Below are positions 23,079 through 47,359 of a DNA stretch of 64,000 nucleotides, in pieces. The stretch covers positions 25,951 to 89,950 of the forward strand of contig SVAK01000001.1 of assembly GCA_015059445.1 (NCBI GenBank). The letters are read 5' to 3'. How positions within the stretch are numbered: position 1 is the first letter of the stretch; each line of letters starts with the position of its first letter. A model generated the notes under the pieces. It worked only from the letters and a program-made list of their open reading frames with translations, ran no database searches and was not told the DNA's origin. Origin of the DNA: Bacillota bacterium. GTDB lineage: Bacteria; Bacillota_I; Bacilli_A; RF39; UBA660. The position numbers and the translations under genes were made by a program.

Positions 23079-23882
23079 TTATTTTTCAAATCTGTAAATA
23101 TTAATTGATGGTGTGTTTAATAATCTAAAATTGTACTTTTCATATCCTAGACCATTTGATATTAATAATTCCGTATTATTCAAAACATAATAATCATTAA
23201 TATAAGTTTTAGCACCGTCTTTTTTTAATAATCCGCCATAATATGGTATATTTATAATTCCTCCTAAAGAATGTCCGCTTAAAATTGTATCAATATCATA
23301 TTCACTTAGTTTAGTAAAATTATCTGGTTCATGCACTATAGCTAATGAGTATTCATATTCTACATCAGTATCTAATAATTCAGCAACATTATCTATATTA
23401 GTTAGGCCTATTATATTAATCGGAGTAATATCTTTATAAAATAGTAAAGTATTTTGATTATCTAGTAAATTAAATTCTGAATCATATAAAATATCCTTAT
23501 AATTATCTAAAAACTTCTTATCATTGTCCCCAATAACAGCATATTTGTACAATGACGCTTCCATTTCGTTTAATGAACTTTTTAAAAAATCAAAATCTTC
23601 TGTAGAATACTTTTCATTATTATTAAATAAATCACCACTAAAAATAATAATGTCAGGTTTAATTTTATTAACGTTTTCTATTAAATTAGTTAATTTGTCC
23701 TTGTTTTTTGATACATATAAAATATCGGAAAAGTGGACGATTTTTAAATTTTCAAAACTTTTAGGAATCTTATTATTATTGATTGTATATTCTTTAATTT
23801 TAAAATTGTTTACTTCGAAATACTTACCATATAAAAAGATTGAAATGATAAGAATGAGAACAACTGCTATAATCTTTTTCAT
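23079..23882 (-). CDS. Secreted or membrane-anchored calcineurin-like metallophosphoesterase
   Basis: N-terminal TM/signal segment. Motifs VHFSDIL, SGDLF and GHSLGG match the conserved metallophosphatase blocks. Confidence 0.7.
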   Translation of the reverse strand: MKKIIAVVLILIISIFLYGKYFEVNNFKIKEYTINNNKIPKSFENLKIVHFSDILYVSKNKDKLTNLIENVNKIKPDIIIFSGDLFNNNEKYSTEDFDFLKSSLNEMEASLYKYAVIGDNDKKFLDNYKDILYDSEFNLLDNQNTLLFYKDITPINIIGLTNIDNVAELLDTDVEYEYSLAIVHEPDNFTKLSEYDIDTILSGHSLGGIINIPYYGGLLKKDGAKTYINDYYVLNNTELLISNGLGYEKYNFRLLNTPSINIYRFEK

Positions 23883-23884
23883 TT

Positions 23885-24580
23885 TTATCCCCCAATAAAG
23901 AATAATAATAATGCAATTGCATTATGGATAGAGTGAAAGCTAATGCTAGTCCAAATATTTTTAGTTTTATAATATATAAATGAAAAAGAACAACCTAAAG
24001 CACCATAAGGGATAATATAAAATATTTCTTCAAGGCTAGTAATGTTAAATAAGTGAAGTGCTCCAAAGATTAATCCTGAAGTTAGAACATAAAATGTTGG
24101 TCTTTTAAAGGTATCTTTTAAAATCACTCTAGTAATTAATTCTTCAACAATCGGAGCTACAATAATCATGGTAATAGATGAATAAATAGGCATTCTTTCT
24201 AATAAATTTTGATTTAGTTCTTCGTTAACAGATGTACCAATAAAATTACTAAGGATTAGATTACTTATTATCATTATGATTAATCCTAAAATCCAAAATA
24301 TTGCACTTTTTTTAATATAATTTTTACCATTCTTCTTAAATTCATAATAATCAGGAATTATAGTTTTACGAAAAATAAAAATAAAAATTGTTAATACAAT
24401 TAACTCTATAAAAATACTACTAATATTAGCAATCCATGTATTACTACTCATAACATCTCTTTTAAAAGTTAATTGCAGAGAAACTACGACTATAAAATAA
24501 AAAAACACTATTGAAATTTGTTTAATAAACGCGATAATTTTATGAAAAATATCACTCAAAAAAATAATTATTTTGTTCAT
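23885..24580 (-). CDS. CPBP-family intramembrane glutamic endopeptidase (CAAX protease-like)
   Basis: Polytopic membrane protein with EELITRVIL (motif 1), FGALH (motif 2) and HSIHN (motif 3). Confidence 0.75.
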   Translation of the reverse strand: MNKIIIFLSDIFHKIIAFIKQISIVFFYFIVVVSLQLTFKRDVMSSNTWIANISSIFIELIVLTIFIFIFRKTIIPDYYEFKKNGKNYIKKSAIFWILGLIIMIISNLILSNFIGTSVNEELNQNLLERMPIYSSITMIIVAPIVEELITRVILKDTFKRPTFYVLTSGLIFGALHLFNITSLEEIFYIIPYGALGCSFSFIYYKTKNIWTSISFHSIHNAIALLLFFIGG

Positions 24581-24686: not shown

Positions 24687-25409
24687 TTGAAGAAAAAATT
24701 ATTACTTACGTTAGCTACTTTATTTTTATTTACCATTAAAGTAGAAGCGGCGTCTATTTGTTCATATAAAGAACAAACTGAAATTAATCAATTAGCTGCA
24801 AATGTTAAGGCCACTTATGAAGTTGTTCAAGATACAGTTCAGTTTGAAGATATGAACTCTACAATGGATGTGTTTAACATCTCACTTTTTAATGTAACAG
24901 AAAAAATTTACGTGGTTATAAAAAACAACATAAATAATGAAGAAAAAATAATAACATCGAATGATGCAACTGAAGGTGTAGCAAGTTTTAAATGGGATTA
25001 TGCAGAAGCAGTTACTAATTTTACTATTCAAGTTTATACAACAGAGAGAACTAGTTGTCCTAATGAAAGATACAAAACAATTTATTTAACTACACCAAGA
25101 TATAATGAATTTTATGATAGGGAAACTTGTCAAGAACTAACAGATTTTTACCTTTGTCAAAAGTTTGTAACTTTTTCAGAAATTAGTGAAGAAAAATTTT
25201 TTAAACAATTGGAAAGTTATCGAAATGGTGATGTTAATGACTCTGGTGAGGATATAAAAGATAAAGATGATAATTCAACTACAGATAAAGTATTTAATTT
25301 TATAGACGATTATAAATGGTATTTTGTTGGAGGTACAATAGTTGTTTTAGTGGTTATAATAATTATCTTCAAGTTGAAAGGTAGGAAACAGAGGGATTTA
25401 GGTTTATGA
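24687..25409 (+). CDS. Secreted protein with a C-terminal TM anchor (240 aa), first gene of the pilus/T4SS cluster
   Basis: TTG start. Signal peptide MKKKLLLTLATLFLFTIKVEAAS. C-terminal hydrophobic helix GGTIVVLVVIIIIF followed by KLKGRKQRD. Confidence 0.55.
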   Translation: MKKKLLLTLATLFLFTIKVEAASICSYKEQTEINQLAANVKATYEVVQDTVQFEDMNSTMDVFNISLFNVTEKIYVVIKNNINNEEKIITSNDATEGVASFKWDYAEAVTNFTIQVYTTERTSCPNERYKTIYLTTPRYNEFYDRETCQELTDFYLCQKFVTFSEISEEKFFKQLESYRNGDVNDSGEDIKDKDDNSTTDKVFNFIDDYKWYFVGGTIVVLVVIIIIFKLKGRKQRDLGL

Positions 25410-29080: not shown

Positions 29081-29100
29081 GAAAAGGAGGAAACATTTAA

Positions 29101-29505
29101 ATGAAAGAATCATATTGGGGATACTGGCTAGTTATCCTAGGAGTATTTGTAGTAGTAATAATGCTTTTAATTCAAAATGTTACCTCTAATAATGCCGAAG
29201 ATAGTTATACGATAAAACAAATTAGTGAAGCTGCTTTAATTGATGCAGTAGATTATGCTTACTATAGAGAATATGGTGAGTTAAGAATCACTAGAGAAAA
29301 ATTTATTGAAAGTTTCTTAAGAAGATTTGCTGACACAGCTTCACTTACTACCAAATATAAAATTACTTTTACTGGTATTTATGAAGCTCCCCCTAAAGTT
29401 AGTGTAGAGGTGACAAGTCAAACAAATACTTACGTAGTAGCTACTGATACAGAAACATTTGATATGTCTAGTAGAGTAGATGCTATTTTAGAACAAAACG
29501 ATTAA
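29101..29505 (+). CDS. Pilin-like/TadE-like small protein (134 aa) with an N-terminal hydrophobic helix
   Basis: Strong RBS AAGGAGG. N-terminus MKESYWGYWLVILGVFVVVIMLL shares the MKE(A/S)..G plus hydrophobic-helix pattern with four downstream pilin-like genes. Confidence 0.4.
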   Translation: MKESYWGYWLVILGVFVVVIMLLIQNVTSNNAEDSYTIKQISEAALIDAVDYAYYREYGELRITREKFIESFLRRFADTASLTTKYKITFTGIYEAPPKVSVEVTSQTNTYVVATDTETFDMSSRVDAILEQND

Positions 29506-29519
29506 GGAGGAAGAATAAA

Positions 29520-30296
29520 ATGGGAAATGTAGTTACAACAATTAAAAGGTTTTTGGGAAACAAGAATACAGTGACAATTTTAGCGGTACTAGCAGGTATA
29601 ATAGTTTTATGGTATTTTTACACATATCGTGTAGAGCAGGCTATAACTACTATAAAAATACCATATGCAACACAAGCTATAGATACTGGAACAAAAATTG
29701 AAACTGATATTATTGAGTATAAAGAAATAACTTCTAGTACATTAAAGGATAGCGACATGATAACTGATGTATCTGCTTTAAAAGATAAATATGTTTGTGT
29801 TGGTACTAGTATACCTGCAAATGGCTTCTTTTATGAATCACAAGTTTGCGATAAAAAAGAATTACCAAATTCAGTTTTAGATGATATACCAGATGATTAT
29901 AAACCATTTACTTTAAGTGTTAATAATCAAATGACATATGCCAATTCCATTATGCCTGAAGATTATATTGATTTATACTTACAAGCAAAAGATGATGATG
30001 GTCAAATAATTTGGGGCCCATTAATTGAGAGTATTGAAGTTCTAGCTGTAAGAGATTCTAGTGGAAGAGATGTATTCTGGGATTCAGCAGCAGGAGATTC
30101 GGCTTACTTATTATTTGCAGTCCCAGATGAATATCATCAATTACTAAATGTTGCTGGATTAATAACTGCAAATAGCATTAAAATTATACCTGTTCCAAGA
30201 AGTGCATCTTATACAGCAAATCCTGGAGAAACTAAGATATCAAGCGAAGAATTATATTACTTTATAATGAGTAAAGCAGCAACATTAACAGAGTAA
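29520..30296 (+). CDS. CpaB/RcpC-like Flp pilus assembly protein
   Basis: N-terminal TM (TVTILAVLAGIIVLWYF) followed by a SAF-like beta-rich domain. The size (258 aa) and position before the ATPase match Tad loci. Confidence 0.55.
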   Translation: MGNVVTTIKRFLGNKNTVTILAVLAGIIVLWYFYTYRVEQAITTIKIPYATQAIDTGTKIETDIIEYKEITSSTLKDSDMITDVSALKDKYVCVGTSIPANGFFYESQVCDKKELPNSVLDDIPDDYKPFTLSVNNQMTYANSIMPEDYIDLYLQAKDDDGQIIWGPLIESIEVLAVRDSSGRDVFWDSAAGDSAYLLFAVPDEYHQLLNVAGLITANSIKIIPVPRSASYTANPGETKISSEELYYFIMSKAATLTE

Positions 30297-30315
30297 AAAA
30301 AGGAGTGGTCGAAAA

Positions 30316-31401
30316 GTGAATGATGCTATATTTTCACAAATAGATTTTGGACCTTTAAAAGAATTTTTAGATGATGATAATATTACGGACATATCCTATA
30401 GTAATAATGGTCAAATTCATTTAAAAACTTTAGATAAAGGTGTATATCCGGTCGAAAGACCAGACATAAATAATGCATTATTGGAAAAATTAGCTTTCCA
30501 ATGTTCTAATGTAATGGGAAAAACATTTAATATGGCTCATCCATTACTCGATGCTGAATCAGCAGAACTGCGTTTAAACTTTGTTCATGATTCCATTGCT
30601 ACAAATGGTATAGCCTGTACAATTAGAAAAACACCAGCCAAGATAAGATTAAATAAAGAAAAATTAATAAATGAACAATATGTTACTGAAGAATTATTGG
30701 ATTTCTTATTAACTTGTGTTGCTGGGCATTGTAATATCATTGTTAGTGGAGAAACAGGTTCTGGTAAAACAGAATTAGTTAAATATTTAGCTAGTCATAT
30801 AAAAGAAAATGAAAAAATAATTACTATTGAAGATACATTAGAATTACACTTAGATAGAATATTTCCTCATCGAGATATTGTAGCTATGAAAACTAATAAC
30901 ATCGCTGGGTATTCTGATGTATTGGTAGCATGTATGAGACAAAATCCAAGATGGATTTTACTATCCGAAGTTAGAAGCGATGAAGCTGTTACTGCAGCGC
31001 GTAATTCGATTTCATCAGGTCATAATATTTTATCAACAATTCACTCTGATAGAGCTAAAAATGTTCCAATGCGTATGTATAGTTTGCTGGAAACAAATCA
31101 AGATATAGAGCAATTTTTAAAATCAATTCATAGATATGTTCAACTAGCAGTACATGTTAAGGGATATATGAGTAAAGAATTAGGAAGATTTCAAAGAGAA
31201 ATTGTTGAAGTGTGTGAATTTTATGTGGATGATGATAATCAAGCAGGTTCAAATGTTATATATAAGAAAAATCTAGATGGAAAATTATTATTTAATGAGC
31301 CATCTAAATATTTAAAAGACTATTTAGGTTCACAAGGTGTTAATTTAAAAGAAAATATTTTTGGAGAAAACACAGAAGTAGAAGAAATAGATTCATTATA
31401 A
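30316..31401 (+). CDS. TadA/CpaF/VirB11-family secretion ATPase
   Basis: GTG start after AGGAGTGG. Walker A VSGETGSGKTE. ITIEDTLEL Asp box/Walker B region. HSD His box. 361 aa. Confidence 0.8.
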   Translation: MNDAIFSQIDFGPLKEFLDDDNITDISYSNNGQIHLKTLDKGVYPVERPDINNALLEKLAFQCSNVMGKTFNMAHPLLDAESAELRLNFVHDSIATNGIACTIRKTPAKIRLNKEKLINEQYVTEELLDFLLTCVAGHCNIIVSGETGSGKTELVKYLASHIKENEKIITIEDTLELHLDRIFPHRDIVAMKTNNIAGYSDVLVACMRQNPRWILLSEVRSDEAVTAARNSISSGHNILSTIHSDRAKNVPMRMYSLLETNQDIEQFLKSIHRYVQLAVHVKGYMSKELGRFQREIVEVCEFYVDDDNQAGSNVIYKKNLDGKLLFNEPSKYLKDYLGSQGVNLKENIFGENTEVEEIDSL

Positions 31402-31421
31402 AAAGGGAAGAAGGTGCATAA

Positions 31422-32327
31422 ATGAGAACATTAACAGAACTTTTAATATTACTAGCATTGGCGATTTTTGTTTTAATGTATCGTAAATCAAAAGATGGTA
31501 AAGTTTTAAAAAATATAGCTGATTCTGTTGGAGATGTTTATAATAAATATGCACCATATTCTTTTAAAATAGTTCGAGAAAAAGCAAAAGAATTAGGGCA
31601 AGAATATACTACACGCCAATATATAACCCAAGTGATTTTATTGGGTGGACTTGCTGGTATTATTGGTTACTTTTACTTTTATAGTATTGTTTGGGCTGTA
31701 ATATATGCTCTAGCAACTATAGCTTTTATACCATATTTAGCATATTTAAGATGTCAAAGAGTATATAGTGAATTTATTTTTGAGCAAATTCAAACTTATA
31801 CAACTAATGTTATAATGGAATTTAATACTACTCAAAGTTTTGTTAAAAGTTTAGAAGGTGTAAGAGATTCAGGGATTATTGAAGATCCTGTATTAAGTGA
31901 CATTAGTAAAATGATAGATATGTCTTATAAAAACGGTACTATAGATGAATCAATTGAATATTTTAATTCTAAATATCCTTATTATATGGTAAAAAATATG
32001 CATCAATTATTTTTGCAAATTACTAAAGAAGGTTCAAGAGATGCTGGAGAATCTTTGGAAAACATGTCAATGGATATCGATGCCTTAGTTGAAGGTGTAT
32101 ATCGTGATCAAATGGATCGAAAGAATTTCCATAAAAGATTCTTAACTTTTGCCCTTGTTTTATTTGCTTTAGTAATAGTTGTAGAGTTTATGTTAGGTAA
32201 AGATAACTATATTGAATTATTGGAAATGTGGTATGTTCAGTTAATCTTACATGTTATTATCATAATAAATATTTATTTCCTAATCACTGGTGAAAAATAT
32301 TACAATGAAGATGTGGGGGCTGAATAA
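31422..32327 (+). CDS. TadB-like (T2SS-F/GspF-domain) pilus assembly membrane protein
   Basis: N-terminal TM, a central helical T2SSF-like cytoplasmic domain and C-terminal TM helices. Sits immediately after the ATPase. Confidence 0.55.
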   Translation: MRTLTELLILLALAIFVLMYRKSKDGKVLKNIADSVGDVYNKYAPYSFKIVREKAKELGQEYTTRQYITQVILLGGLAGIIGYFYFYSIVWAVIYALATIAFIPYLAYLRCQRVYSEFIFEQIQTYTTNVIMEFNTTQSFVKSLEGVRDSGIIEDPVLSDISKMIDMSYKNGTIDESIEYFNSKYPYYMVKNMHQLFLQITKEGSRDAGESLENMSMDIDALVEGVYRDQMDRKNFHKRFLTFALVLFALVIVVEFMLGKDNYIELLEMWYVQLILHVIIIINIYFLITGEKYYNEDVGAE

Positions 32328-33115
32328 TGCAAATAGAAATTATTATAATAGCAATTCTTATATTTGTTGTAATGACCTATAATGGTCAACTTAGCATTAA
32401 AGATTTAATTAATGACAATTTCCATTTATTTCGCAAATTAAAAGAAGATGATTGGGACTTTTATGTCAGAGCTAAATATGGTGATAATGTTAAATCTGAT
32501 AGTATTTTTATTAAAAGAATTAGAAACGGTTTAGCAGTAATTGTTATTTGTCTATTCTTTTTTATTAAAGATTTGGACGCTCTTAAAGTATTAATCTCAG
32601 TTGTGGTAGGATATCTAATATTTAAAATAGATTATTATGATATTAAATCTTTCTATAAAAGACATGTATACCACATTGATAGTATGTTACCGCATTATTT
32701 AAAAAGTATTGAAATATTAATACAACATTATACTGTACCAGTAGCAATCGGCAAATCTATTCTAGATGCTCCGGAAATTTTTAAAGATGGGTTACAGGAA
32801 ATGATTAATGAAATTAATTCTGGTAATGATACAATTGAACCTTATATGAATTTTGCTAAAAAATATCCGGTAAGGGATTCAATGCGTATGATGCGTCTTT
32901 TATATCGTTTGAGCTTAGGAAGTCAAGATAGAAAACAAGAGCAGATGATAATGTTCTCTAGAACTATTTCTAATCTACAACAAAAAGCAAGAGAAACAAA
33001 ATATAAAAATCGTTTAGATAAGATGGAAAGTAAAACCATGAGTATGTTGATGTCAACAGGATTTGGAGTAATGGTTTTGCTAGTATTAGCAGTATTACAA
33101 ATGATGAATTTATAA
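32327..33115 (+). CDS. TadC-like (T2SS-F-domain) pilus assembly membrane protein
   Basis: TAATG overlap with the tadB-like gene. Same architecture: TM, helical domain, TM. It is the paralogue partner of the upstream gene. Confidence 0.5.
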   Translation: MQIEIIIIAILIFVVMTYNGQLSIKDLINDNFHLFRKLKEDDWDFYVRAKYGDNVKSDSIFIKRIRNGLAVIVICLFFFIKDLDALKVLISVVVGYLIFKIDYYDIKSFYKRHVYHIDSMLPHYLKSIEILIQHYTVPVAIGKSILDAPEIFKDGLQEMINEINSGNDTIEPYMNFAKKYPVRDSMRMMRLLYRLSLGSQDRKQEQMIMFSRTISNLQQKARETKYKNRLDKMESKTMSMLMSTGFGVMVLLVLAVLQMMNL

Positions 33116-33212
33116 AAGGTTTTAACTAGCCTTTTATTTTTTTGTCTTGCTTTGCGTATCAGTAAGAATGTTGTCAATAATCATCTAATAATAATTTTTT
33201 ATTTTAAAAATG

Positions 33213-33241
33213 TTGTTATTTTTAAAATAATTAGTTATAAT
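33213..33241 (+). promoter_or_regulatory. Sigma-A-like promoter TTGTTA-17-TATAAT upstream of the tandem pilin-like genes
   Basis: -35 at 33213-33218 and a perfect -10 at 33236-33241. RBS GGAGGAG (33258-33264) precedes the TTG start at 33271. A weak hairpin/T-run follows the tadC stop upstream. Confidence 0.55.
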
Positions 33242-33270
33242 AAAAATATATAATAGAGGAGGAGATTAGT

Positions 33271-33534
33271 TTGAAAGAAGCAACTGGAGAATTAAATATG
33301 ACAGTTATTACTATAGTAGCAATAGGAGCATTGGTAGCATTCTTCTATTTGGTTATTTGGCCAAATATCCAAGTTGGTATGACTTTATCGTCTGCTTGTA
33401 ATAGTGCAGGGACTGCAGCGATGAATCAAACATTAGATGATGGTTCTACCATAGTTTGTAATGGTGCAGATCCAAATGTTTGTACATATACACCAGCAGG
33501 TGGAGGCGCTGCTACAACAAGAACTTGTGACTAA
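33271..33534 (+). CDS. Short pilin-like protein 1 (87 aa) with a Cys-rich C-terminus
   Basis: TTG start. MKEATGELN leader then hydrophobic helix MTVITIVAIGALVAFFYLVIW. C-terminal CNSAG...CNGADPNVCTYTPAGGGAATTRTCD. Confidence 0.5.
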   Translation: MKEATGELNMTVITIVAIGALVAFFYLVIWPNIQVGMTLSSACNSAGTAAMNQTLDDGSTIVCNGADPNVCTYTPAGGGAATTRTCD

Positions 33535-33540
33535 CTAATT

Positions 33541-33774
33541 ATGAAAGAAGCAACAGGTGAACTTAATGCCACTGTTGTAGTAGTATTGGCTATTGGAGTT
33601 CTAATAGCCTTTTTTTACTACACTTTGTGGCCTTTAATGAAAGATAATTTCAATAAAAATTCACAATGTAGTAAGGCTATTTGTGAATCATGTAATACGG
33701 GGAATTGTGATTATGTGACTTGTCATCCTAAAAATGATCCAACTACTGAATTTGAATGTGTATATAAAGGTTAA
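33541..33774 (+). CDS. Short pilin-like protein 2 (77 aa), tandem paralogue
   Basis: Identical MKEATGELN leader, hydrophobic helix ATVVVVLAIGVLIAFFYY, and a six-Cys C-terminus (CSKAICESCNTGNCDYVTC...C). Confidence 0.5.
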   Translation: MKEATGELNATVVVVLAIGVLIAFFYYTLWPLMKDNFNKNSQCSKAICESCNTGNCDYVTCHPKNDPTTEFECVYKG

Positions 33775-33786
33775 GGAAGTGATTTA

Positions 33787-34305
33787 ATGAAAGAAGCTTT
33801 GGGTGGAATATCTTTGTTTCAAATAGTTATAGTTTTTATTCTGCTATTTACAGGTATTATTTGTCTAACAATTAATCAATCTAAAGCTTTTGCTGTTAAA
33901 GATGAAATTATTACTATAATCCAAAATCAAAATATTGATTCATTTAGTAATGGTTCCGATTATAAACTCACTGACGATACATCTCAAAATATAGCGGTTC
34001 GTTTAAAAGATGCGGGATATAGAACTACTGGTAATTGTCCAAGTGGTGAATGGATTGGTTATAGTAGAGATGGCGTTGAAGTGAGTAATAACGCAGCCTT
34101 TTGCATTAGAGTTAATAATGTATCTAGCACGTTTTATTCAGATTTAGAAAATAAATGCACTGCTGATAAATGTATAATTACATCAGAAGATTACCCTTCG
34201 ATGGTTTATTATGATATCGTCTTATTTTATGAGTTAGATATACCAATATTAAAATATTTTATGAATTTTAAAATATATGGTTCTACGAAAGTATTGTTTG
34301 GTTAG
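33787..34305 (+). CDS. Pseudopilin/TadE-like minor pilin candidate (172 aa)
   Basis: MKEALGG leader plus the hydrophobic helix ISLFQIVIVFILLFTGIICL. Shares a GY(R/D)T(T/V)G(N/K)C block with the next gene. Confidence 0.45.
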   Translation: MKEALGGISLFQIVIVFILLFTGIICLTINQSKAFAVKDEIITIIQNQNIDSFSNGSDYKLTDDTSQNIAVRLKDAGYRTTGNCPSGEWIGYSRDGVEVSNNAAFCIRVNNVSSTFYSDLENKCTADKCIITSEDYPSMVYYDIVLFYELDIPILKYFMNFKIYGSTKVLFG

Positions 34306-34312
34306 GTGATTT

Positions 34313-34807
34313 ATGAAACAGGCAGTAGCAACAACATCTATTTTTAAAGTAGTATTAGTTTTTACGCTTTTATTTTCGGCATTTCTAGCAGTGGCAATAA
34401 CTTATAATAGAGTTTATAAGTTAAAAAATGAAACAATAGCTATAGTTGAAAAATATGAAGGAATAAGTAGAAAATCTTTAACTATAATCAATAATTATTT
34501 ACAAAATAGCGGTTATGATACAGTAGGAAAATGTGAAAATGGAGAATATGGGATAACCGATTTATCTAGTGATACTTATGAACTTTCCCAAAATAATAAA
34601 GATTATTATTATTGTTTGAATTTTTTTTGTCAAGGTTCAAGCTGTAATGTAAATGATTCTTCTACACCAAATGGTAATCAAATATTTTATAATGTTAAAT
34701 TCTTTTTTAAATTTAACATTCCATTTATTGGAGAATTATTTACTTTTAATATAAATGGCAATACAAAAGGAATTAAGCTTTATTCTGAAACACAAAAATT
34801 ATCATAG
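34313..34807 (+). CDS. Pseudopilin/TadE-like minor pilin candidate (164 aa), paralogue of the preceding gene
   Basis: MKQAVATTSIFKVVLVFTLLF leader/helix. Conserved GYDTVGKCENGEYG block. Confidence 0.45.
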   Translation: MKQAVATTSIFKVVLVFTLLFSAFLAVAITYNRVYKLKNETIAIVEKYEGISRKSLTIINNYLQNSGYDTVGKCENGEYGITDLSSDTYELSQNNKDYYYCLNFFCQGSSCNVNDSSTPNGNQIFYNVKFFFKFNIPFIGELFTFNINGNTKGIKLYSETQKLS

Positions 34808-34821
34808 AAGGAGTATTATAA

Positions 34822-35787
34822 ATGAATGTAATAATATCAAATAAATATCAAACTTTATTAGGAACATTAAATATTGATGTTATTAAAACTATCAATGGAG
34901 AGTTTAGTGTTCAAGATTTAGTTAATCAATTTAGTAATTTTTACTATAATAAAATGGTTATTGATATAACAGCAATTAAAAATTATCAGAATGTTAATGT
35001 TATGCGCGAGTTATCAATGAATTTTGAAATGGATAAAGTAGTTGTTTTATTAGATGATTCACCTCAGGTGAATTCATCAATGTACTTATCGCAATTAGTG
35101 TCAGTTGGAATTTATAATTTTACTAGAAGTGTAGATGCTATTCCTTTCTTAATTGAACATTCTAATTCATATAAAGATGTTGCTAGTTATCAAAACTTTA
35201 ACGCGAATTCCGGAAATTTTGTGCCAACTAAAGAAGAAAGTACTCCAGTTAAATTAGAACAAAGAGTTATAGGATTTAAAAATGTCACGGAACATGCCGG
35301 GGCTACAACTCTAATATATATGCTAAAAAAACATCTTCAAGACACATATAAAGTCAAAGCCATAGAGGTAAATAATAATGACTTTGAATATTTTAATGAT
35401 AAAACATTAGAAAGCGCTGACTTTATGAATGTTTCTTATAAAATTTCTAATTTTTCTGATGTAGAAGTAATTTTGGTGGATTTAAATGATGCTCCAGAAA
35501 GTATTTGTACTGAAATAATTTATTTAATTGAACCAGGAATAATTAAATTAAACAAGTTAATTAGAACTGATAGAAAAATATTTGATAAATTAAGAAATAA
35601 GAAAATAGTATTAAATAAAAGTGTATTAAGTAATAATGATGTATCTGATTTTGAATATGAAAGTGGCAGTAAAGTGTTTTTTAATATACCTTGTTTAGAC
35701 GAAAAATTGGATAATAACAAAAAAATTGTTGAGTTTTTAATTGCTCTAGGTTTTTCTAGATTAAATAGCGAAACCAAAAGATGGTAA
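34822..35787 (+). CDS. TadZ/CpaE-like protein with a degenerate ParA/MinD ATPase domain
   Basis: N-terminal receiver-like alpha/beta segment (VVVLLDD). Central segment RVIGFKNVTEHAGATTLIYML sits where the deviant Walker A (KGGxGKT) would be but lacks the Lys-Thr. ILVDLND resembles a Walker B. Confidence 0.4.
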   Translation: MNVIISNKYQTLLGTLNIDVIKTINGEFSVQDLVNQFSNFYYNKMVIDITAIKNYQNVNVMRELSMNFEMDKVVVLLDDSPQVNSSMYLSQLVSVGIYNFTRSVDAIPFLIEHSNSYKDVASYQNFNANSGNFVPTKEESTPVKLEQRVIGFKNVTEHAGATTLIYMLKKHLQDTYKVKAIEVNNNDFEYFNDKTLESADFMNVSYKISNFSDVEVILVDLNDAPESICTEIIYLIEPGIIKLNKLIRTDRKIFDKLRNKKIVLNKSVLSNNDVSDFEYESGSKVFFNIPCLDEKLDNNKKIVEFLIALGFSRLNSETKRW

Positions 35788-37455: not shown

Positions 37456-38847
37456 ATGAAAAGATATATAATTTTAATTGTTTTTATTTTTATGATGCTT
37501 ATGCCAACTTATACTGAAGCAAAAGAATACCAAGAATTAGTTTGTATGTATGTGGTAGCTTCAGATACAACTGGAGAACATGCGATTCTTATTGAGCAGT
37601 TATCAGATGGAAGCAAAACGGTTTATACAAGAAAGCCAAATACTTATAAAGATGATAGTGATAAAACTTACAATTTTATAAGAGACAAGTGGGATACTAT
37701 TGGTGAGATTATGGGAGGAAATAACTCAAAATATGATATTAAAGACTGGGAAAATGGTTGGGTTGAAACTCCAAATATAAACTGGTATTCTGAAATTCAA
37801 CCACTGGGAACTTATGATTACAGAAATGGCGATTTTTGTGATGCGAGCAGTGGAACGGATTATCTTTGTGAAGGTTATATAAAAAAAATTACAGCTTCTG
37901 AATTTGATTTGGCTGATTATTGTGGCGACGATGACATGAATTTATATAGATTTCATGATACTGCAAGTGAGGAAGTTGGATCTCCTTATTGGGATTATAC
38001 TACTTCTGCATTCTATGCAACTCTTACTAAGAGACATTTAGTTTTTAGTGAAGATATTTTGTCTTTGGAAACAAATGAAGGTTTTATAGAATATGTATTT
38101 GCAGCCTCTTCATTCACTATCGGAAAACATGATGGAAGTGGTAACTTAGATCCGGGGTATCAAGGTGCCATAGATAATATAGATACTATAATTCCTTATG
38201 ATGGTGATTATGAGGAATATAAAAATATAAAGTATAATACATACTGGAATATGTACTGTCATTATGGTTCGCCATTAAATATGAAAACGGTTGTGGAATT
38301 GTATGTTAATAATAGTACTCTATTATTATATAACCCGAACTCTGAAACAAATTATCCTTATTCAGCTTTTAATCACGATGATGTAAAAAATATGGAATCT
38401 TGTCCTCCAGTCTTATATGGAGTGGGAGCTATAGTAGATGGTATCCAACATTATACTTATTATTTGAAGGAACCTGCTTTATGGTCTGGATATTCTTTGC
38501 TTTATTCAGGTAGTGGATTTGTACCAGGCGAAGAGAATGTTTTGATCCAAGAGCAAAGTTGTGAGTCTCTGTTAGGCAATCCTCAGACTAATGGAACACC
38601 AGCTTATTACTTGCAATTTGTTCTAAATTTGATTAAATATGCTGCCATCATATTGCTAGTAGTATTAAGTATTTTTGATTTTGTCGGCGCCGTTTCATCA
38701 CATGATCAAGAAATACTTTCTAAGTGTGTCAAAAAAGTCGGTTTTAGACTTATTTGGTGTGTAGCTATATTCTTTATTCCAACCATACTAAATTATATAT
38801 TTACATTTGTAGAAATATATAGTCCTAGTACATGCGGAATTAAATAA
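37456..38847 (+). CDS. Secreted protein (463 aa) with a C-terminal two-helix hairpin module, third paralogue
   Basis: Signal peptide MKRYIILIVFIFMMLMPTYTEA. C-terminal LIKYAAIILLVVLSIFDFVGAVSSHDQEILSKCVKKVGFRLIWCVAIFFIPTIL. Confidence 0.55.
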   Translation: MKRYIILIVFIFMMLMPTYTEAKEYQELVCMYVVASDTTGEHAILIEQLSDGSKTVYTRKPNTYKDDSDKTYNFIRDKWDTIGEIMGGNNSKYDIKDWENGWVETPNINWYSEIQPLGTYDYRNGDFCDASSGTDYLCEGYIKKITASEFDLADYCGDDDMNLYRFHDTASEEVGSPYWDYTTSAFYATLTKRHLVFSEDILSLETNEGFIEYVFAASSFTIGKHDGSGNLDPGYQGAIDNIDTIIPYDGDYEEYKNIKYNTYWNMYCHYGSPLNMKTVVELYVNNSTLLLYNPNSETNYPYSAFNHDDVKNMESCPPVLYGVGAIVDGIQHYTYYLKEPALWSGYSLLYSGSGFVPGEENVLIQEQSCESLLGNPQTNGTPAYYLQFVLNLIKYAAIILLVVLSIFDFVGAVSSHDQEILSKCVKKVGFRLIWCVAIFFIPTILNYIFTFVEIYSPSTCGIK

Positions 38848-38865
38848 TAAAGAAAGGAGTAACAA

Positions 38866-41361
38866 ATGAATATTTTATCAATTTTTTCAATTTTAGCTGG
38901 ACCCTTTTCTGGATTAGAAGGCAGTGAAATAATAATCAATTTTTTACTTTTAATTGATTCGAAAATTTATGAATTATTTGGTTATTTATATGGTTTATAT
39001 ATATCAATAGCTAGTGCGAAAATATTTAATGTCGAAGTTTTTGATTATTTTGTTAAAAATATTTATATTATTTTTGGGGTAGTAGCTTTATTTATTCTTG
39101 CTTTCTTTCTATTACAAAATGTTGTAAATCCAGAAGGAAATGGCACCAAAGATGCAAAAGATTTTATTATGCGTTTTGTCTTGGCAATTGGATTAACATT
39201 TTTGATTCCATTCTTTTTTGATTTTCTTTATGACTTTCAATATTCTATTTTAAAATACGGCACTATACCCAAGATTACTCTAAGCGAAGCTAGAAATACT
39301 ATTGTAGAAGTGCCAATATATTATAAAAATGAACTTGGTCAATATTTTTGCGAAGATCTAACAACTTTTTATGATGAAAAAACTAATCCATGCAAAATCT
39401 ATTCTACTGTCGAAAAAGTAGATAAAGGTGAAGCAGTACTTCGCGCATACGGTTACGGTATAGCATATGATGTATTTAGTGGTTTTCTCTATCCATCTGG
39501 GCTAGTTGCAGACGATGAACTCGTAATAAATGCTAGTGACTATTTTACAGCTGAGAGAGGTGCCTCATGGGGAATTTGGGGATGTATTGCTGGAGCTGGG
39601 CTAGTTGCAGTTGGAGCTGTAGTTACTTATTTTACCGGAGGTCTAGGGGCTGTTGGAGGTTTTATTACTGCTAAAACAGGTACCGCAATGGTGTTAGGGT
39701 GTCTTGGCCTCGGTGCCTTAGGGGGAGTGGCCAATGCTGTGGGTGGCGTAATTGATGCCGAAAAATATCCATGGACTAGTATAGTACAAAGTATGGAATA
39801 TATGGGAGATTATTCTTTAGTACCAGCACTAGATGGTGCTATTGTTACCGGCCATATAGAATATTCACCTATTATTTCTACTGTTGCTGGTATCATTTTA
39901 GTGTATTTAATATTTAGTTTTTGTCTTGATTTGGGTGTAAGAGCTGCTAAATTAGTTTTATATCAACTATTAGCACCATTAAGTTTTATTATAAGCGCAA
40001 TTCCATCAAAGAAAGATTTAATGTCCAAATGGTTTAAAGCTGTTTTTACAATTTGGATGGAGGTTTTTATAAGAATAGTTTGTGTTTGTGGCGTAGCAAT
40101 GCTAATCCGAAATTTAAATTTGGGTGAGTTTGAGAGTTTAGGCGGCTTAGCTAAAGCTATTATTGTTTTAGGTTTAGTAACATTTGCTAAACAGTTTCCT
40201 AGATTGTTGGGAGATATACTTGGTTTTGATTCAGGAAACTTGAAATTAGGTATAAAAGAAAAATTAGCTGAAGGTGGTGCATTTACTGCTGGAGCATTAG
40301 TTGGAGCTGGAGCGACAGCACTTTTAAGAAATACTGTAGCAGGAGCAAAAGGTGTCAAAAATAAGTTCTTGGAAAACAAAAAAGCATTAAATGATGCTGG
40401 TAAAACAGGTTGGAAGGCTAATTTGGCTGCTGCTTGGCAGTCTAAAGGAGCAGCTGGTAAAATGCTTGGATCTATGGCTGCTGGAACGGTATCCGGAGCT
40501 TTCAGAGGTGGTAAAGCTGGATGGTCTGCCAAAAATTGGGGTGATATGACATCAGCAGCTGGTAAAGGCGCAAAAGGTGCTACTGATGCAAGAATAAAGC
40601 GAGCAAGTTACAAAGCTAGCCACGGAGGTACTATTGGTGGAGCTTTTGAAGGACATTTCCATGACATGCTTCAAGGTGGAGCAAAATGGCTTGGAATTGA
40701 AGAAGACTACACTGTGCTTCAAGCCGAGCAAAATAGCGCTGATTCATTATTAGCATCAGTAAAAAAAATTGGGGATATAAGCGAAGATTATATTGTTAAA
40801 CATCAGAGTGAATTTTTTGCGAAATTAACTGAGGATCAAGAAAATGCTATTGCAGAACTTAGAAAGAAAATTGCAAATACTAGTCCTCACCGTAAAGATA
40901 AGATACAAAAATATGAACAACAAATAGCTCAAATTCAAGCATCAACAAGATTAGATTATTTAGAAGCGGCTATTAAAGAAGCTGAAAAGTCTGGAGATGC
41001 AATAGCAATTGCTGAGGCAACTAATAGATATAAAAAAGCTTTTAAAGATATTAAAGATGGATTTGCATCTTCAGTATTTTCACATGAGGGAGCTAGTAAG
41101 GAAGCAATTGCTATTCAAGCAGAATTGGATAGTATCAATAATAAATTGCGTGAAGAAGTCAATTCTCAAGTTGTGTCATTGTTAAGATCAGGTAGAGCAA
41201 ATGAAGCTGGTAAAACTATTGTTGGTGCACAAGAAGGAGATGTAAGAGCTGATAATGCTGCCGATTTCTTGAAACAATTAAAGTCTGCTGCTGAAGTAAC
41301 TACTGCTGAAATAAGTGCTGAACGTTCTAAACTTGAAAGAAGACAAAAAAAAGATAAATAA
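38866..41361 (+). CDS. VirB6-like polytopic membrane protein of Gram-positive T4SS (TcpH/PrgH/ConG-like), 831 aa
   Basis: Multiple TM helices including a Gly/Ala-rich membrane segment (GIWGCIAGAGLVAVGAVVTYFTGGLGAVGGF...). A roughly 350-aa C-terminal Ala/Lys/Gly-rich coiled-coil domain. Its size and its position before the VirB3/VirB4-like genes fit the family. Confidence 0.55.
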   Translation: MNILSIFSILAGPFSGLEGSEIIINFLLLIDSKIYELFGYLYGLYISIASAKIFNVEVFDYFVKNIYIIFGVVALFILAFFLLQNVVNPEGNGTKDAKDFIMRFVLAIGLTFLIPFFFDFLYDFQYSILKYGTIPKITLSEARNTIVEVPIYYKNELGQYFCEDLTTFYDEKTNPCKIYSTVEKVDKGEAVLRAYGYGIAYDVFSGFLYPSGLVADDELVINASDYFTAERGASWGIWGCIAGAGLVAVGAVVTYFTGGLGAVGGFITAKTGTAMVLGCLGLGALGGVANAVGGVIDAEKYPWTSIVQSMEYMGDYSLVPALDGAIVTGHIEYSPIISTVAGIILVYLIFSFCLDLGVRAAKLVLYQLLAPLSFIISAIPSKKDLMSKWFKAVFTIWMEVFIRIVCVCGVAMLIRNLNLGEFESLGGLAKAIIVLGLVTFAKQFPRLLGDILGFDSGNLKLGIKEKLAEGGAFTAGALVGAGATALLRNTVAGAKGVKNKFLENKKALNDAGKTGWKANLAAAWQSKGAAGKMLGSMAAGTVSGAFRGGKAGWSAKNWGDMTSAAGKGAKGATDARIKRASYKASHGGTIGGAFEGHFHDMLQGGAKWLGIEEDYTVLQAEQNSADSLLASVKKIGDISEDYIVKHQSEFFAKLTEDQENAIAELRKKIANTSPHRKDKIQKYEQQIAQIQASTRLDYLEAAIKEAEKSGDAIAIAEATNRYKKAFKDIKDGFASSVFSHEGASKEAIAIQAELDSINNKLREEVNSQVVSLLRSGRANEAGKTIVGAQEGDVRADNAADFLKQLKSAAEVTTAEISAERSKLERRQKKDK

Positions 41362-41381
41362 ATTGAAGGAGGAATAAAAGG

Positions 41382-41699
41382 GTGAATAATTATTTAATAC
41401 CAGCCAATACAAAGAAATCCCAATTAATTTTAGGTTTCTTTACTCTGACAGATTTAATTATATTTATAGTTGGAGTTGTATGGTCATTTATAATGTTAGT
41501 ACTTATAAAATCATTAAATTTACCAGTTTTAATTTTAATAATGCTACCGGCATTAATTGCAACATTCTTAGTAATGCCGGTACCGCATTATCATAATATA
41601 TTGCAATTACTAACTAATATATTTAGTTTTTATACTAATAGAAGACAATATTTTTGGAAAGGATGGTGTATTCATGAAGGAAACAACTCAAGTAAATAA
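41382..41699 (+). CDS. VirB3-like small membrane protein (PrgI/ConD-like), 105 aa
   Basis: GTG start after GAAGGAGG. Two TM helices. Sits immediately upstream of, and overlapping, the VirB4 gene. Confidence 0.45.
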   Translation: MNNYLIPANTKKSQLILGFFTLTDLIIFIVGVVWSFIMLVLIKSLNLPVLILIMLPALIATFLVMPVPHYHNILQLLTNIFSFYTNRRQYFWKGWCIHEGNNSSK

Positions 41700-42237
41700 T
41701 GGCGCAAGGTTTACAGATGCTTGGTTACCAGTTAGACAAATCATGAATGGAATGATTCAACTTGATAGTGGTTACTATGTTACCGGTGTTAAGGTTCATC
41801 CTAAGAATATATTTATTATGGATCAACAAGCTCAAGACGGTATGGTTTATAATTTAAGAAATTTTTACAATACTATAGATTATGAATTTTGGTTAATCAT
41901 AGCTGATCGACCAGTTGATATTAATTTATACTTAGCAGAACTTCAAAGAATGTATAATAATACTACTAGTAATGAAATTAGAAAATTAATATTACAGGAT
42001 ATTAATAAAGCCAATCAATTCATGAGCATTGAATATAATGTTGTGGATACTGAATATTATTTGATTTTCCAAGAAAAAAAATTGGAAGTATTACAAAAGA
42101 AATTACATAATATGATAAGTGGACTTGCCTCATGTGGATTACAATCTACTCAAACAAGTAATAGTGATTTAAGGGTTATTTTAGATAATTTATTAAATGG
42201 GGGAGAAACAATTAATTTTGGGACGGTGATGTACTAA
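41674..42237 (+). CDS. VirB4-family ATPase, N-terminal domain as a separate 187-aa ORF
   Basis: Overlaps the upstream gene by 26 nt. Ends in TAATG overlapped by the start of the next ORF. 187 + 594 aa together give the usual length of about 780 aa for a Gram-positive VirB4 (TcpF/PrgJ/ConE). Confidence 0.5.
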   Translation: MKETTQVNNGARFTDAWLPVRQIMNGMIQLDSGYYVTGVKVHPKNIFIMDQQAQDGMVYNLRNFYNTIDYEFWLIIADRPVDINLYLAELQRMYNNTTSNEIRKLILQDINKANQFMSIEYNVVDTEYYLIFQEKKLEVLQKKLHNMISGLASCGLQSTQTSNSDLRVILDNLLNGGETINFGTVMY

Positions 42238-44021: not shown

Positions 44022-44046
44022 AAAAGCTATTCAATAGCTTTTTTTT
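44022..44046 (+). terminator. Rho-independent terminator after VirB4, followed by an extended -10 promoter (TGgTAAAAT, 44048-44056)
   Basis: Inverted repeat AAAAGCTATT / AATAGCTTTT, then a T-run. Confidence 0.5.
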
Positions 44047-44079
44047 ATGGTAAAATAGTTACAAATAGGTGGTAATCAT

Positions 44080-46506: not shown

Positions 46507-46518
46507 GAGAATAGATAT

Positions 46519-47298: not shown

Positions 47299-47306
47299 AA
47301 TATTTT

Positions 47307-47335
47307 TTGATATTAAGTATTATTTATAGTATAAT
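47307..47335 (+). promoter_or_regulatory. Consensus sigma-A promoter TTGATA-17-TATAAT upstream of the coupling-protein gene
   Basis: -35 at 47307-47312 and -10 TATAAT at 47330-47335. RBS AGGAGGAG and GTG 47360 follow. Confidence 0.6.
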
Positions 47336-47359
47336 AAGACGTGAATTAGGAGGAGTAAC

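Follow-up and report, generated by a model that had tools for sequence, protein, structure and literature searches.

Gene organisation of the locus

The window analysed in this study, a stretch of 64 kb of DNA, comes from an uncultured gut bacterium that is the source of all five tagged pilin-like proteins; in this bacterium the module is chromosomal. The five open reading frames named in the original prediction (29101, 33271, 33541, 33787 and 34313) were all found, and the features of the locus are listed in Table 1. Some 200 genome stretches were found to hold relatives of the DUF5411 protein, almost all of them from genomes of gut Bacilli (RF39-like), and the gene order of the module is kept across 78 related loci.

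Table 1. Genes and other features in and around the module (window positions).
Feature	Position	Strand	Basis
Metallophosphoesterase, membrane-anchored (YaeI/LpxG-like)	23079..23882	-	Pfam Metallophos; NCBIfam LpxG/YaeI below cutoff
CPBP (Rce1-like) intramembrane glutamic protease	23885..24580	-	Pfam Rce1-like, 6e-18
p240: Sec signal peptide, Cys-containing ectodomain, C-terminal transmembrane segment, basic tail	24687..25409	+	Sequence and orthologues
Cys-rich secreted protein, 1224 aa	25406..29080	+	Sec-type N-terminus
DUF5411 protein, tag MKESYWG then transmembrane segment	29101..29505	+	PF17424, 180 bits
CpaB/RcpC-like bitopic protein	29520..30296	+	TIGR03177, 1.4e-9 (below cutoff); Pfam RcpC, 5.6e-5
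CpaF/TadA/VirB11-type secretion ATPase	30316..31401	+	Pfam T2SSE, 1.4e-30
Polytopic membrane protein 1, TadB position	31422..32327	+	hhalign 95% to Bacillus cytotoxicus plasmid counterpart
Polytopic membrane protein 2, TadC position	32327..33115	+	hhalign 95.5% to Bacillus cytotoxicus plasmid counterpart
Promoter-like site, TTGTTA-17-TATAAT	33213..33241	+	Consensus match only
Short pilin-like protein A, 87 aa, MKEATGELN	33271..33534	+	
Short pilin-like protein B, 77 aa, MKEATGELN	33541..33774	+	6 Cys in C-terminal 35 residues
p172, minor-pilin-like, MKEALGG	33787..34305	+	AlphaFold2 model
p164, p172 paralogue over full length, MKQAVAT	34313..34807	+	hhalign 99.4%, E 1.4e-21
p321, conserved soluble protein	34822..35787	+	
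Two VirB2-type T4SS_pilin-like membrane proteins	35870-36259, 36347-37414	+	PF18895, weak
Rest of Gram-positive type IV secretion system (T4SS): p463; VirB6-like (38866); split VirB3/VirB4 (41382, 41674, 42237); M23 + lysozyme cell-wall hydrolase (44080); p259; VirD4 (47360)	37456..49582	+	Pfam, NCBIfam

The phosphoesterase gene has the same orientation as the CPBP protease gene, and 40 related loci have it upstream of the module; its membership of the system is uncertain. p240 was found in 70 loci and the 1224-aa Cys-rich protein in 75, and in several loci the gene for the latter is duplicated along with those for p240 and the DUF5411 protein. A family search with the 1224-aa protein gave no match; it is presumed to be an adhesin, its position matching that of the thioester adhesin of pLS20.

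The closest solved relatives of the ATPase are CpaF, FlaI and VirB11. Searches of Pfam and the PDB gave no match for polytopic protein 1 and matches at chance level only (E of at least 0.04) for polytopic protein 2, and Pfam searches with the module genes returned no Flp, TadE or T2SSF match. The promoter-like site falls in a 155-bp AT-rich gap before the first short pilin-like gene, which starts with TTG and has a ribosome-binding site (GGAGG) 8 nt before the start. p321 matched nothing in Pfam, NCBIfam or the PDB; a local match of 13% probability to a Bacillus AAA_31 protein, confined to a GATT P-loop-like segment, suggests that it may be a degenerate TadZ/ParA-like protein.

Analysis of the downstream genes revealed a VirD4 of the CD1115 family (NCBIfam, 291 bits, exceeding the cutoff of 250) and a VirB4 with an Mbov_0397 match of 350 bits, which is below cutoff. 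The VirB2-type proteins are kept in 35 loci, and their pLS20 counterpart matches PF18895 at 1.3e-7. The link to a pLS20-type T4SS, the DUF5411 identity of the protein at 29101 and the conserved adjacent CPBP protease had all been missed in the earlier reading.

A shared N-terminal tag in three unrelated families

All five proteins begin with M-[KR]-[EQ]-[AST]-x(1-2)-G or a close variant of it: MKESYWGYW (29101), MKEATGELN (33271 and 33541), MKEALGGIS (33787) and MKQAVATTS (34313). The start MKE(A/S/Q)xxG proposed in the original prediction thus holds as a common tag, but its spacer is one or two residues instead of a fixed two (glycine is residue 6 of the short proteins and of p172, and residue 7 of the DUF5411 protein), and the protein at 34313 has Gln3 and Ala6 in place of the glycine. 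As had been proposed, the tag runs directly into a hydrophobic segment, of about 22 residues here, and glutamic acid directly follows glycine in both short proteins. Direct reading of the five sequences also bore out the absence of the type IVa (G/FTLIE) and Flp (G/XXXXEY) motifs, and a scan of the window and the related loci for G/FTLIE-type motifs found them in no gene.

A search of the six-frame translation for M[KR][EQDN][ASTG]x(1-2)[GSA] followed by a hydrophobic stretch matched these five open reading frames alone in the window; in about 1.2 Mb of the 78 related loci, 246 of 248 matches fell in the same five families. Comparison of the N-termini across orthologues revealed glycine at position 6 in 95 of 96 short proteins (with leucine at position 8 in 96 of 96), 44 of 47 p172 proteins and 33 of 39 p164 proteins, and at position 7 in 75 of 78 DUF5411 proteins. 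The exceptions are mostly small residues (Ser, Ala, Thr). Synonymous codons at A4, T5 and G6 vary as much as in the rest of the gene, indicating that the constraint acts on the protein. Residues 2-5 (K-E-A-T) are conserved to the same degree as the mature part, and the net charge of the tag is neutral.

The tag bearers belong to three unrelated families. In the short Cys-rich proteins, the putative major subunits, the N-terminal 31 residues are highly conserved across 459 clusters at 50% identity, with F25 and W30-P31 invariant, and the C-terminus is hypervariable and Cys-rich, a pattern that likens them to major pilins. The p172/p164 paralogues form the second family; p172 has 164 homologues, none with annotation, and does not match DUF4320. 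The third is DUF5411, whose N-terminus is conserved in 120 homologues and in the 78 loci. An extended N-terminal helix was obtained for p172, for which AlphaFold2 predicted a lollipop shape with a continuous helix (residues 3-47) and a beta head (pLDDT 81), but not for the DUF5411 protein, whose poor model (pLDDT 64) lacks a single long helix. Comparison of the tagged proteins with solved pilins found similarity in neither sequence nor fold.

Peptidase genes

The original prediction that no prepilin peptidase is encoded in the window was upheld and extended. Peptidase_A24 had no Pfam match in the window or about 9 kb past each end (about 82 kb in all), as judged by Pfam runs on the window's open reading frames and precomputed Pfam data for the remaining genes and flanks, and the GxGD[hydrophobic][KR] signature was present in no polytopic open reading frame. 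An A24 peptidase was likewise found in none of the 78 related loci, nor anywhere on the 53-kb Bacillus cytotoxicus plasmid, which has a homologous module.

The CPBP protease, in contrast, is catalytically intact as judged from its EExxxR, FxxxH and HxxxN motifs, which at least 40 of 41 orthologues retain. Its NCBIfam matches are MrtJ/MroQ-like, weak and below cutoff. The gene adjoins the module, in divergent orientation, in about 38 of the 49 loci (about 78%) with enough upstream DNA.

Comparison with known systems

Gene order and profile similarity place the module within a pLS20-type Gram-positive T4SS. The conjugation operons of pLS20 (Bacillus subtilis) and of Bacillus cereus-group plasmids such as pCh38_53 are colinear with it, the common order being a large surface adhesin, DUF5411, (CpaB-like), TadA/VirB11-like ATPase, two polytopic proteins, small transmembrane proteins, T4SS_pilin, VirD4 (CD1115 family) and VirB6-like. 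The polytopic proteins of the Bacillus plasmid are homologous to the RF39 ones by hhalign, and a prepilin peptidase is not among the annotations of the 53-kb plasmid. However, the small proteins of the Bacillus plasmid carry DUF4320 and lack the M-K-E-x-G tag, and the Bacillus modules are plasmid-borne with a relaxase, whereas no relaxase was recognised in the chromosomal RF39 locus.

Resemblance to Tad/Flp systems (type IVc; Caulobacter Cpa, Aggregatibacter Tad) extends to the CpaF-type ATPase, the CpaB/RcpC-like protein, two polytopic proteins after the ATPase, small major subunits followed by larger minor ones, and a peptidase gene that is not linked in every case. The module differs in its lack of the Flp motif, of Flp, TadE and T2SSF matches and of a TadV in the searches above, in its highly conserved, net neutral leader of 6-7 residues, and in being embedded in a T4SS. 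Type IVa pilins (MKAQKG/FTLIELMIVVAIIGIL...) share a 6-residue leader ending in glycine, about 20 hydrophobic residues, a variable Cys-containing C-terminus and a helix-kinking proline about 25 residues into the mature part (compare W30-P31), but their glutamic acid is at +5 instead of directly after glycine, their leader is basic, and neither sequence homology to them nor a PilD was found here.

Miller et al. 2022 (PMC9523054) described, from gene embedding and HHpred only, an uncharacterised 'membrane machinery' of Roseburia, Ruminococcus and Eubacterium. By description it likewise comprises CpaF, a PilC-like platform, DUF5411, a large invasion/adhesin-like protein and several unannotated small proteins; its authors did not analyse the N-terminal tag and reported no T4SS link.

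Nature and possible processing of the tagged proteins

Whether the tag is cut, and by which enzyme, is subject to competing readings; the original prediction had offered two, a divergent processing specificity and unprocessed membrane anchors, and the present data do not separate them. The best of the readings, held tentatively at somewhat less than an even chance, regards the five as pilin-like subunits that belong to a Tad-like module within a pLS20-type T4SS, with the tag being cut by an unlinked peptidase. The pilin-like reading of the original prediction gains support from the confinement of a tag under protein-level constraint to three unrelated families, the long helix and beta head predicted for p172, and the variability pattern of the short proteins. 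It is further supported by the separate promoter-like site and strong ribosome-binding site of the first short gene, and by the conserved order of CpaB-like protein, ATPase and polytopic proteins directly upstream, the last two homologous to proteins of a conjugative-type plasmid. The platform protein of the Clostridial DUF5411 operon is PilC by HHpred (PMC9523054).

For cleavage, a near-invariant glycine at the polar/hydrophobic boundary would suit A24 peptidases, whose one strict requirement is Gly or Ala at -1 (Pseudomonas aeruginosa PilA mutagenesis), and the leader length equals the 6-7 residues of type IVa pilins. An unlinked gene would have a parallel in Bifidobacterium breve, in which tadV reportedly lies apart from the tad locus. 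Against this stand the absence of A24 genes from all loci searched, the missing +5 glutamic acid and Flp EY motif, the lack of likeness to solved pilins and pilin families, the low-confidence DUF5411 model and the Bacillus DUF5411 relatives, which lack the conserved glycine. The leader is also net neutral and as conserved as the mature part, whereas classical leaders are variable in sequence and net positive.

These last properties would be expected if the Tad-like motor assembled leaderless subunits and the N-terminal octapeptide stayed on, serving recognition or packing in the mature subunit, a reading we consider unlikely. The K2/E3(/E7) charges cancel, so that the short N-terminus could leave the cytoplasmic face uncut; every residue of MKEATGEL is constrained, not glycine alone; and the DUF5411/DUF4320 proteins of the Bacillus modules begin with 3-9 polar residues, among which glycine is not conserved. 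No linked A24 gene accompanies the 78 loci or the Bacillus plasmid relatives, and a peptidase is missing from the Clostridial operon list (PMC9523054). However, the A24 absence covers the surroundings of the locus and the related loci, so the gene could lie elsewhere in the genome, and the glycine in three unrelated families has the look of a cleavage site. To our knowledge, no type IV filament system characterised to date can do without leader removal.

The CPBP protease is a candidate for an alternative processing enzyme that would remove the K-E-[AS]-x-G tag on the cytoplasmic side of the membrane in place of a prepilin peptidase, which we judge improbable. It is linked to the tagged proteins by gene neighbourhood only, directly upstream regardless of what lies beyond, and a sequence-specific protease would account for the conserved residues 2-5. 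CPBP relatives remove short peptides beside membrane segments: MroQ cuts AgrD, and MrtJ/MrtX act on C-terminal sorting signals. The gene is, however, missing near about 10 loci bearing the same tag and from the operons of the Bacillus plasmid and pLS20 relatives; its partner is the phosphoesterase gene and not the pilin genes, p240 is an equally plausible substrate by virtue of its C-terminal transmembrane segment and basic tail, and we know of no CPBP protein that acts on pilin-like substrates.

Quite improbable, too, is that the five proteins form no filament and are bitopic parts of a T4SS channel or wall-spanning scaffold, with the shared N-terminus serving as a tag for membrane insertion or complex assembly. 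Gram-positive T4SSs are believed to lack pili (PMC8092201). Genes for VirB2-type T4SS_pilin proteins are present in the locus as well, and the missing pilin match in sequence and fold, together with a DUF5411 model that is no clear lollipop, fits this reading. Yet we know of no role beyond filament assembly for the combination of a CpaF-type ATPase, its two polytopic partners and a CpaB-like protein, and hypervariable Cys-rich C-termini on a conserved hydrophobic N-terminus suit exposed filament subunits, as does the 45-residue N-terminal helix in the p172 model.

Ordinary Sec signals cut further downstream by signal peptidase I are very improbable: the conserved S-K-A-F-[GA] after the hydrophobic stretch of p172 orthologues resembles an AxA site, but it lies within the predicted continuous helix, the short proteins have no such site, the n-region carries no net charge, the hydrophobic stretch, at 22-24 residues, is longer than the 12-17 residues of the locus's evident Sec signals (MKKKLLL, MKKFVKL, MKRYIIL), and residue-for-residue conservation over about 460 clusters is not expected of Sec signals.

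Under the preferred reading of pilin-like subunits processed by an unlinked peptidase, the short proteins at 33271 and 33541 would be the major subunits and p172, p164 and DUF5411 minor or initiating ones; DUF5411 is proposed to be linked to the adhesin, probably by coupling to the large Cys-rich surface protein whose gene directly precedes its own. The tag and the hydrophobic residues would constitute a lineage-specific class-III-like signal with two tasks: to keep the subunits in the membrane in N-in/C-out orientation, and to flag them for the CpaF-like ATPase and the two polytopic proteins that act with it. The cut would most likely fall after the conserved glycine and be made by a prepilin-type peptidase whose gene lies in another part of the genome; if so, the major subunits would carry glutamic acid at +1 instead of the usual +5.

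Conserved N-terminal tag of the pilin-like proteins

The five pilin-like ORFs of the original prediction proved to be real, and in each of the five proteins a hydrophobic run of ~22 residues follows the shared N-terminal tag M-[KR]-[EQ]-[AST]-x(1-2)-G (Table). A fixed MKE(A/S)..G leader had also been proposed. The tag itself stood and the fixed spacing did not: glycine occupies position 6 or 7, and the product of the gene at 34313 (p164) has Ala6 and no glycine. A class III signal, i.e. a short polar leader ending in Gly/Ala followed by ~20 hydrophobic residues, is present, with glycine in four of the five window proteins and alanine in p164. A six-frame scan of the 64-kb window with the pattern M[KR][EQDN][ASTG]x(1-2)[GSA] plus a hydrophobic stretch matched these five ORFs only. 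When the same pattern was applied to 78 related loci (~1.2 Mb), 246 of the 248 matches belonged to these five families.

Comparison of orthologues revealed the conserved residues of the tag. In the short proteins (encoded at 33271 and 33541; MKEATGEL), G6 is found in 95 of 96 and L8 in all 96 orthologues, while F25 and W30-P31 are invariant. The glutamic acid predicted directly after the glycine in both short proteins (ATG-ELN) was confirmed, and E7 occurs in 89 of 96 orthologues. G6 is present in 44 of 47 orthologues of the 33787 product (p172; M[RK]E[AS]IGG) and in 33 of 39 orthologues of p164 (M[RK][EQ][AS]IG), the rest of the latter having mostly Ser or Thr; in the DUF5411 protein (29101 product; MKE[SA]YWG) glycine appears as G7 in 75 of 78. 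All four codons are used for Ala, Thr and Gly at positions 4-6, with synonymous entropy as high as in the rest of the gene. Because codons 4-6 vary freely, the tag is conserved at the protein and not at the mRNA level. Direct reading of the five proteins and of the orthologue tables bore out the absence of Glu at +5 and of the Flp motif G/XXXXEY, and a motif scan of the window and the related loci found no gene with a G/FTLIE-type motif.

Analysis of the relationships between the tagged proteins showed that p172 and p164 are paralogous over their full length (hhalign 99.4%, E 1.4e-21) and that the two short proteins are paralogues of each other; the DUF5411 protein and p172 have nothing in common past the first 11 residues. 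One N-terminal tag on otherwise unrelated families looks like a shared targeting or processing signal.

Pilin-like character

An exhaustive profile search with the short proteins found 459 clusters at 50% identity. The best 150 matches listed all align from residue 1; among the matches listed, the first 31 residues are almost invariant and the C-terminus of 30-60 residues is hypervariable and Cys-rich. This combination is typical of exposed major pilins. The AlphaFold2 model of p172 (pLDDT 81) has a predicted helix at residues 3-47 and four strands, i.e. a lollipop fold; the model of the DUF5411 protein has a pLDDT of 64. The latter protein matches DUF5411 (PF17424) over its full length at 180.3 bits (cutoff 30). 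None of the five proteins matched Flp pilin (PF04964), TadE/TadF (PF07811) or another Pfam or NCBIfam pilin profile at E<1, and PDB profile searches gave nothing meaningful for p172, the short proteins, the DUF5411 protein, the two polytopic proteins or the 34822 product (p321). Since no Flp, TadE or other pilin profile matches, the likeness of the five proteins to pilins lies in their architecture and context rather than in family membership. A terminator-like hairpin (9-bp stem and T-run) lies inside the second short pilin-like gene and is the only such site in 32900-36400 (chance expectation 0.6).

Gene order and T4SS context

The tagged proteins are encoded in a Tad-like module that is followed by type IV secretion system (T4SS) genes (Table). 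The secretion ATPase matched T2SSE at 1.4e-30, its best PDB relatives being CpaF (1.7e-20), FlaI and VirB11; against the NCBIfam VirB11, TrbB and TadA models it scored under all equivalog cutoffs. Neither polytopic protein matched PF00482 (GspF/T2SSF) at E<1; their position, topology and Bacillus plasmid homology fit a TadB/TadC platform role. No relationship between the two polytopic proteins was detectable. For p321 as a TadZ-like protein, only a 13%-probability local match to a Bacillus TadZ-like ATPase was found, which does not support this assignment.

Parts of the T4SS were identified by Pfam (TraG P-loop, AAA_10, PrgI, M23 and lysozyme). The VirB4 NCBIfam scores are under equivalog cutoffs and the VirB6-like assignment is weak. 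VirB4 is split over three consecutive ORFs (PrgI/VirB3-like membrane part, TraC-like N domain and ATPase), which jointly match the Mbov_0397 mycoplasma ICE VirB4 model end to end. The two VirB2-type T4SS_pilin-like proteins are encoded side by side, and the second has a Cys-rich N-terminal ectodomain of ~240 residues with its own signal peptide.

The first three genes (24687-29505), encoding p240, the large Cys-rich protein and the DUF5411 protein, are tandemly duplicated as a unit in the related loci L009, L022, L038, L043, L058/L074 and L059. This duplication suggests that the adhesin genes form exchangeable cassettes, in which a DUF5411 adaptor goes with each adhesin.

Table. Features of the locus and its surroundings, with window coordinates (a single number is the gene position)
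Feature	Order	Coordinates	Strand	N-terminus or remark
ORFs of 368, 272 and 95 aa		12436-14658		consecutive
proS, fhs, uvrB				upstream flank, housekeeping
Metallophosphoesterase		23079-23882	-	YaeI/LpxG-like, membrane-anchored
CPBP protease		23885-24580	-	Rce1/MroQ-like
Tad-like module and T4SS		24687-49582
p240	1	24687	+	type I membrane protein
1224-aa Cys-rich protein	2	25406	+	secreted
DUF5411 protein	3	29101	+	MKESYWGYW
CpaB/RcpC-like protein	4		+
CpaF/TadA/VirB11-type ATPase	5		+
Two polytopic proteins	6	31422, 32327	+
155-bp gap	7		+	promoter-like site
Short protein (87 aa)	8	33271	+	MKEATGELN; TTG start, GGAGG site 8 nt upstream
Short protein (77 aa)	8	33541	+	MKEATGELN
Terminator-like hairpin		33588-33609
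p172	9	33787	+	MKEALGGIS
p164	9	34313	+	MKQAVATTS
p321	10	34822	+
Two T4SS_pilin-like proteins	11	35870-37414	+	VirB2-type
p463	12	37456	+
VirB6-like protein	13		+
Split VirB3/VirB4	14	41382-44021	+
M23-plus-lysozyme hydrolase	15		+
VirD4	16		+
secE, nusG, bipA				downstream flank, housekeeping

Genome setting and distribution

The window DNA (GC ~28%) comes from a metagenome-assembled genome of an uncultured gut Bacillota. The DUF5411 protein and p172 are 100% identical to E7161_00255 and E7161_00290, respectively, of 'MAG: Firmicutes bacterium', and the same species was found again on 170-250 kb contigs from several metagenomes. A complete-looking Gram-positive T4SS and the Tad-like module lie together on the chromosome, flanked on both sides by housekeeping genes. 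Within the window, in which the ORFs at 22000, 46519, 50595 and 12436 are without any family match, no match to a relaxase or integrase family was found. The region looks vertically inherited or domesticated and not like a mobile element.

Analysis of species-representative genomes revealed that the gene order of the module is kept in 78 loci. It is the Tad-like half that is conserved across them, the flanks of these loci stopping short of most T4SS genes. A DUF5411 relative is encoded in ~200 genome stretches. Uncultured Bacilli account for most of the labels; some are 'Tenericutes' or 'Mycoplasma sp. CAG:472', and a few are Muribaculaceae, Clostridia or other. The labels uncultured Bacilli, 'Tenericutes' and 'Mycoplasma sp. 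CAG:472' suggest RF39-like lineages. Three consecutive ORFs at 12436-14658, none with a Pfam or NCBIfam match, directly adjoin the phosphoesterase-CPBP gene pair in 12 other genomes and are separated from it here by ~8 kb of housekeeping genes.

Relatives in cultured bacteria

Relatives on Bacillus plasmids were found by protein search with the window ATPase; a DNA search and tblastn of the plasmid collection with the locus, the DUF5411 protein and the 77-aa protein gave a 93-nt ATPase match or nothing. On plasmid pCh38_53 of Bacillus cytotoxicus, genes for a large 'conjugal transfer protein', DUF5411 and a CpaB-like protein are followed by those for a TadZ-like AAA_31 ATPase and TadA. Next come two polytopic proteins, which are homologous to the window pair (hhalign 95% and 95.5%), an 88-aa transmembrane protein and DUF4320, and then the T4SS. 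No relationship between p172 and DUF4320 was detectable. The same layout occurs in pLS20 (L083, 5420-13208), where a Tad-like block comes straight after the thioester adhesin p34. The members of this block are a protein with a weak match to DUF5411, a TadA-like ATPase, a pair of polytopic proteins, a protein weakly matching DUF4320 and a transmembrane protein of 47 aa. Plasmid pLS20 also encodes a T4SS_pilin protein and a CD1115-type VirD4, and the window VirD4 passes the cutoff of the same family (NF045973, 291 bits against 250).

The Tad-like block is not mentioned in the pLS20 adhesin paper, which reports that p34 is not sortase-anchored and that Gram-positive T4SSs apparently lack pili (PMC8092201). 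An operon with CpaF, PilC-like, DUF5411 and internalin-like proteins in Roseburia, Ruminococcus and Eubacterium has been described as uncharacterised machinery (Miller et al. 2022, PMC9523054); the PilC assignment of the platform protein by HHpred concerns this Clostridial variant only. Literature searches on RF39 pili or T4SS, DUF4320, a pLS20 pilin and Tad-like Gram-positive conjugation turned up no account of the present proteins. The relatives in the Bacillus plasmid, pLS20 and Clostridia indicate that the Tad-like module is a recurrent, essentially unstudied part of Firmicutes conjugation-type systems.

Peptidase search and processing of the tag

To our knowledge, every type IV filament characterised (type IV pili, T2SS pseudopili, Com, Tad and archaella) needs an aspartyl peptidase of the A24 family and a Glu close to the start of the mature subunit. 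That no A24 peptidase is encoded nearby, as predicted, held for the whole window, where neither a Peptidase_A24 match nor a GxGD signature occurs. Neither the match nor the signature was found in ~9 kb past each window end or in the 78 related loci. A scan of ten unassigned polytopic ORFs of the related loci gave housekeeping families or no match, none being A24, and the complete annotation of the 53-kb Bacillus cytotoxicus plasmid lists no prepilin peptidase. A 136-aa polytopic ORF with 'PGDTKM' just upstream of the pCh38_53 module (L082, 4461-4871) appeared TadV-like by eye and was rejected, having no Pfam match. In L056, a weak S26 signal-peptidase-like ORF (14772-15515) follows the second polytopic gene, where pilin-like genes sit elsewhere.

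Cleavage of the tag after glycine by an A24 enzyme encoded elsewhere in the genome is the reading that we tentatively favour. In three unrelated families, glycine marks the exact border between the polar and the hydrophobic part, its substitutes are mostly small residues, and the leader is as long as that of type IVa pilins. Glycine at -1, the sole strict requirement of A24 enzymes, is likewise counted in favour. Several points speak against a classical A24 step: conservation of residues 2-5 matches that of the mature part, the tag carries no net charge, Glu stands right after the glycine and not at +5, the peptidase gene is never linked in the loci examined, and Bacillus DUF5411 homologues have short N-termini without the conserved glycine. 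The points on these two sides determine how all the readings are weighted here. On this weighting, it is less probable that the subunits are unprocessed, i.e. 'leaderless'.

CPBP-dependent processing of the tag is unlikely. The divergent CPBP gene (Pfam Rce1-like, 6e-18) lies immediately upstream of the module and occupies this place in ~38 of the 49 loci whose upstream DNA extends far enough, irrespective of the genes further out, and at least 40 of 41 orthologues keep the EExxxR, FxxxH and HxxxN motifs; against this, the gene is missing from the neighbourhood in ~10 loci carrying the same tag. The CPBP and metallophosphoesterase genes form a divergent pair beside the module in ~78% of loci. 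It is also improbable, on the same weighting, that the five proteins are non-filament T4SS components. Ordinary Sec signals are very hard to reconcile, by inspection, with a neutral n-region (basic in Sec signals) and a hydrophobic stretch of 22-24 residues (7-15 in the Sec h-region).

Proposed function and significance

The locus is a putative variant of type IV filament systems with a new class of subunit signal, in an unexpected place. We propose that the subunits would insert into the membrane N-in/C-out, with the tag recognised at the cytoplasmic face, and that the CpaF-like ATPase, together with both polytopic proteins, would extract the short subunits and stack them onto a primer of p172, p164 and the DUF5411 protein. 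The DUF5411 protein probably links the filament with the large Cys-rich surface protein, because it is duplicated as a unit with p240 and the large protein in several genomes and because a large adhesin precedes DUF5411 in Bacillus and Clostridia too. The filament or pseudopilus may serve contact formation for the adjacent T4SS. Somewhat less probable than A24 cleavage is the reading that this type IV filament does without an A24 peptidase, its subunits being leaderless or CPBP-trimmed, and that it supplies the pilus or pseudopilus long missing from Gram-positive conjugation machines of the pLS20 type, retained here on the chromosome across an entire order of gut Bacilli with reduced genomes.

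How far the A24 and Glu rules apply would be put to the test by a widespread pilin class whose neutral, highly conserved tag has 6-7 residues, with Glu at +1 and without a linked peptidase. The module is built into conjugation operons of the pLS20 type, with colinear gene order. If the five proteins form a filament, this would change the view of mating-pair formation in Firmicutes and hint at a display route for non-sortase adhesins such as p34 of pLS20. Since DUF5411 relatives occur mostly in uncultured gut Bacilli, the module may bear on how organisms with reduced genomes attach to, or exchange DNA with, their partners.
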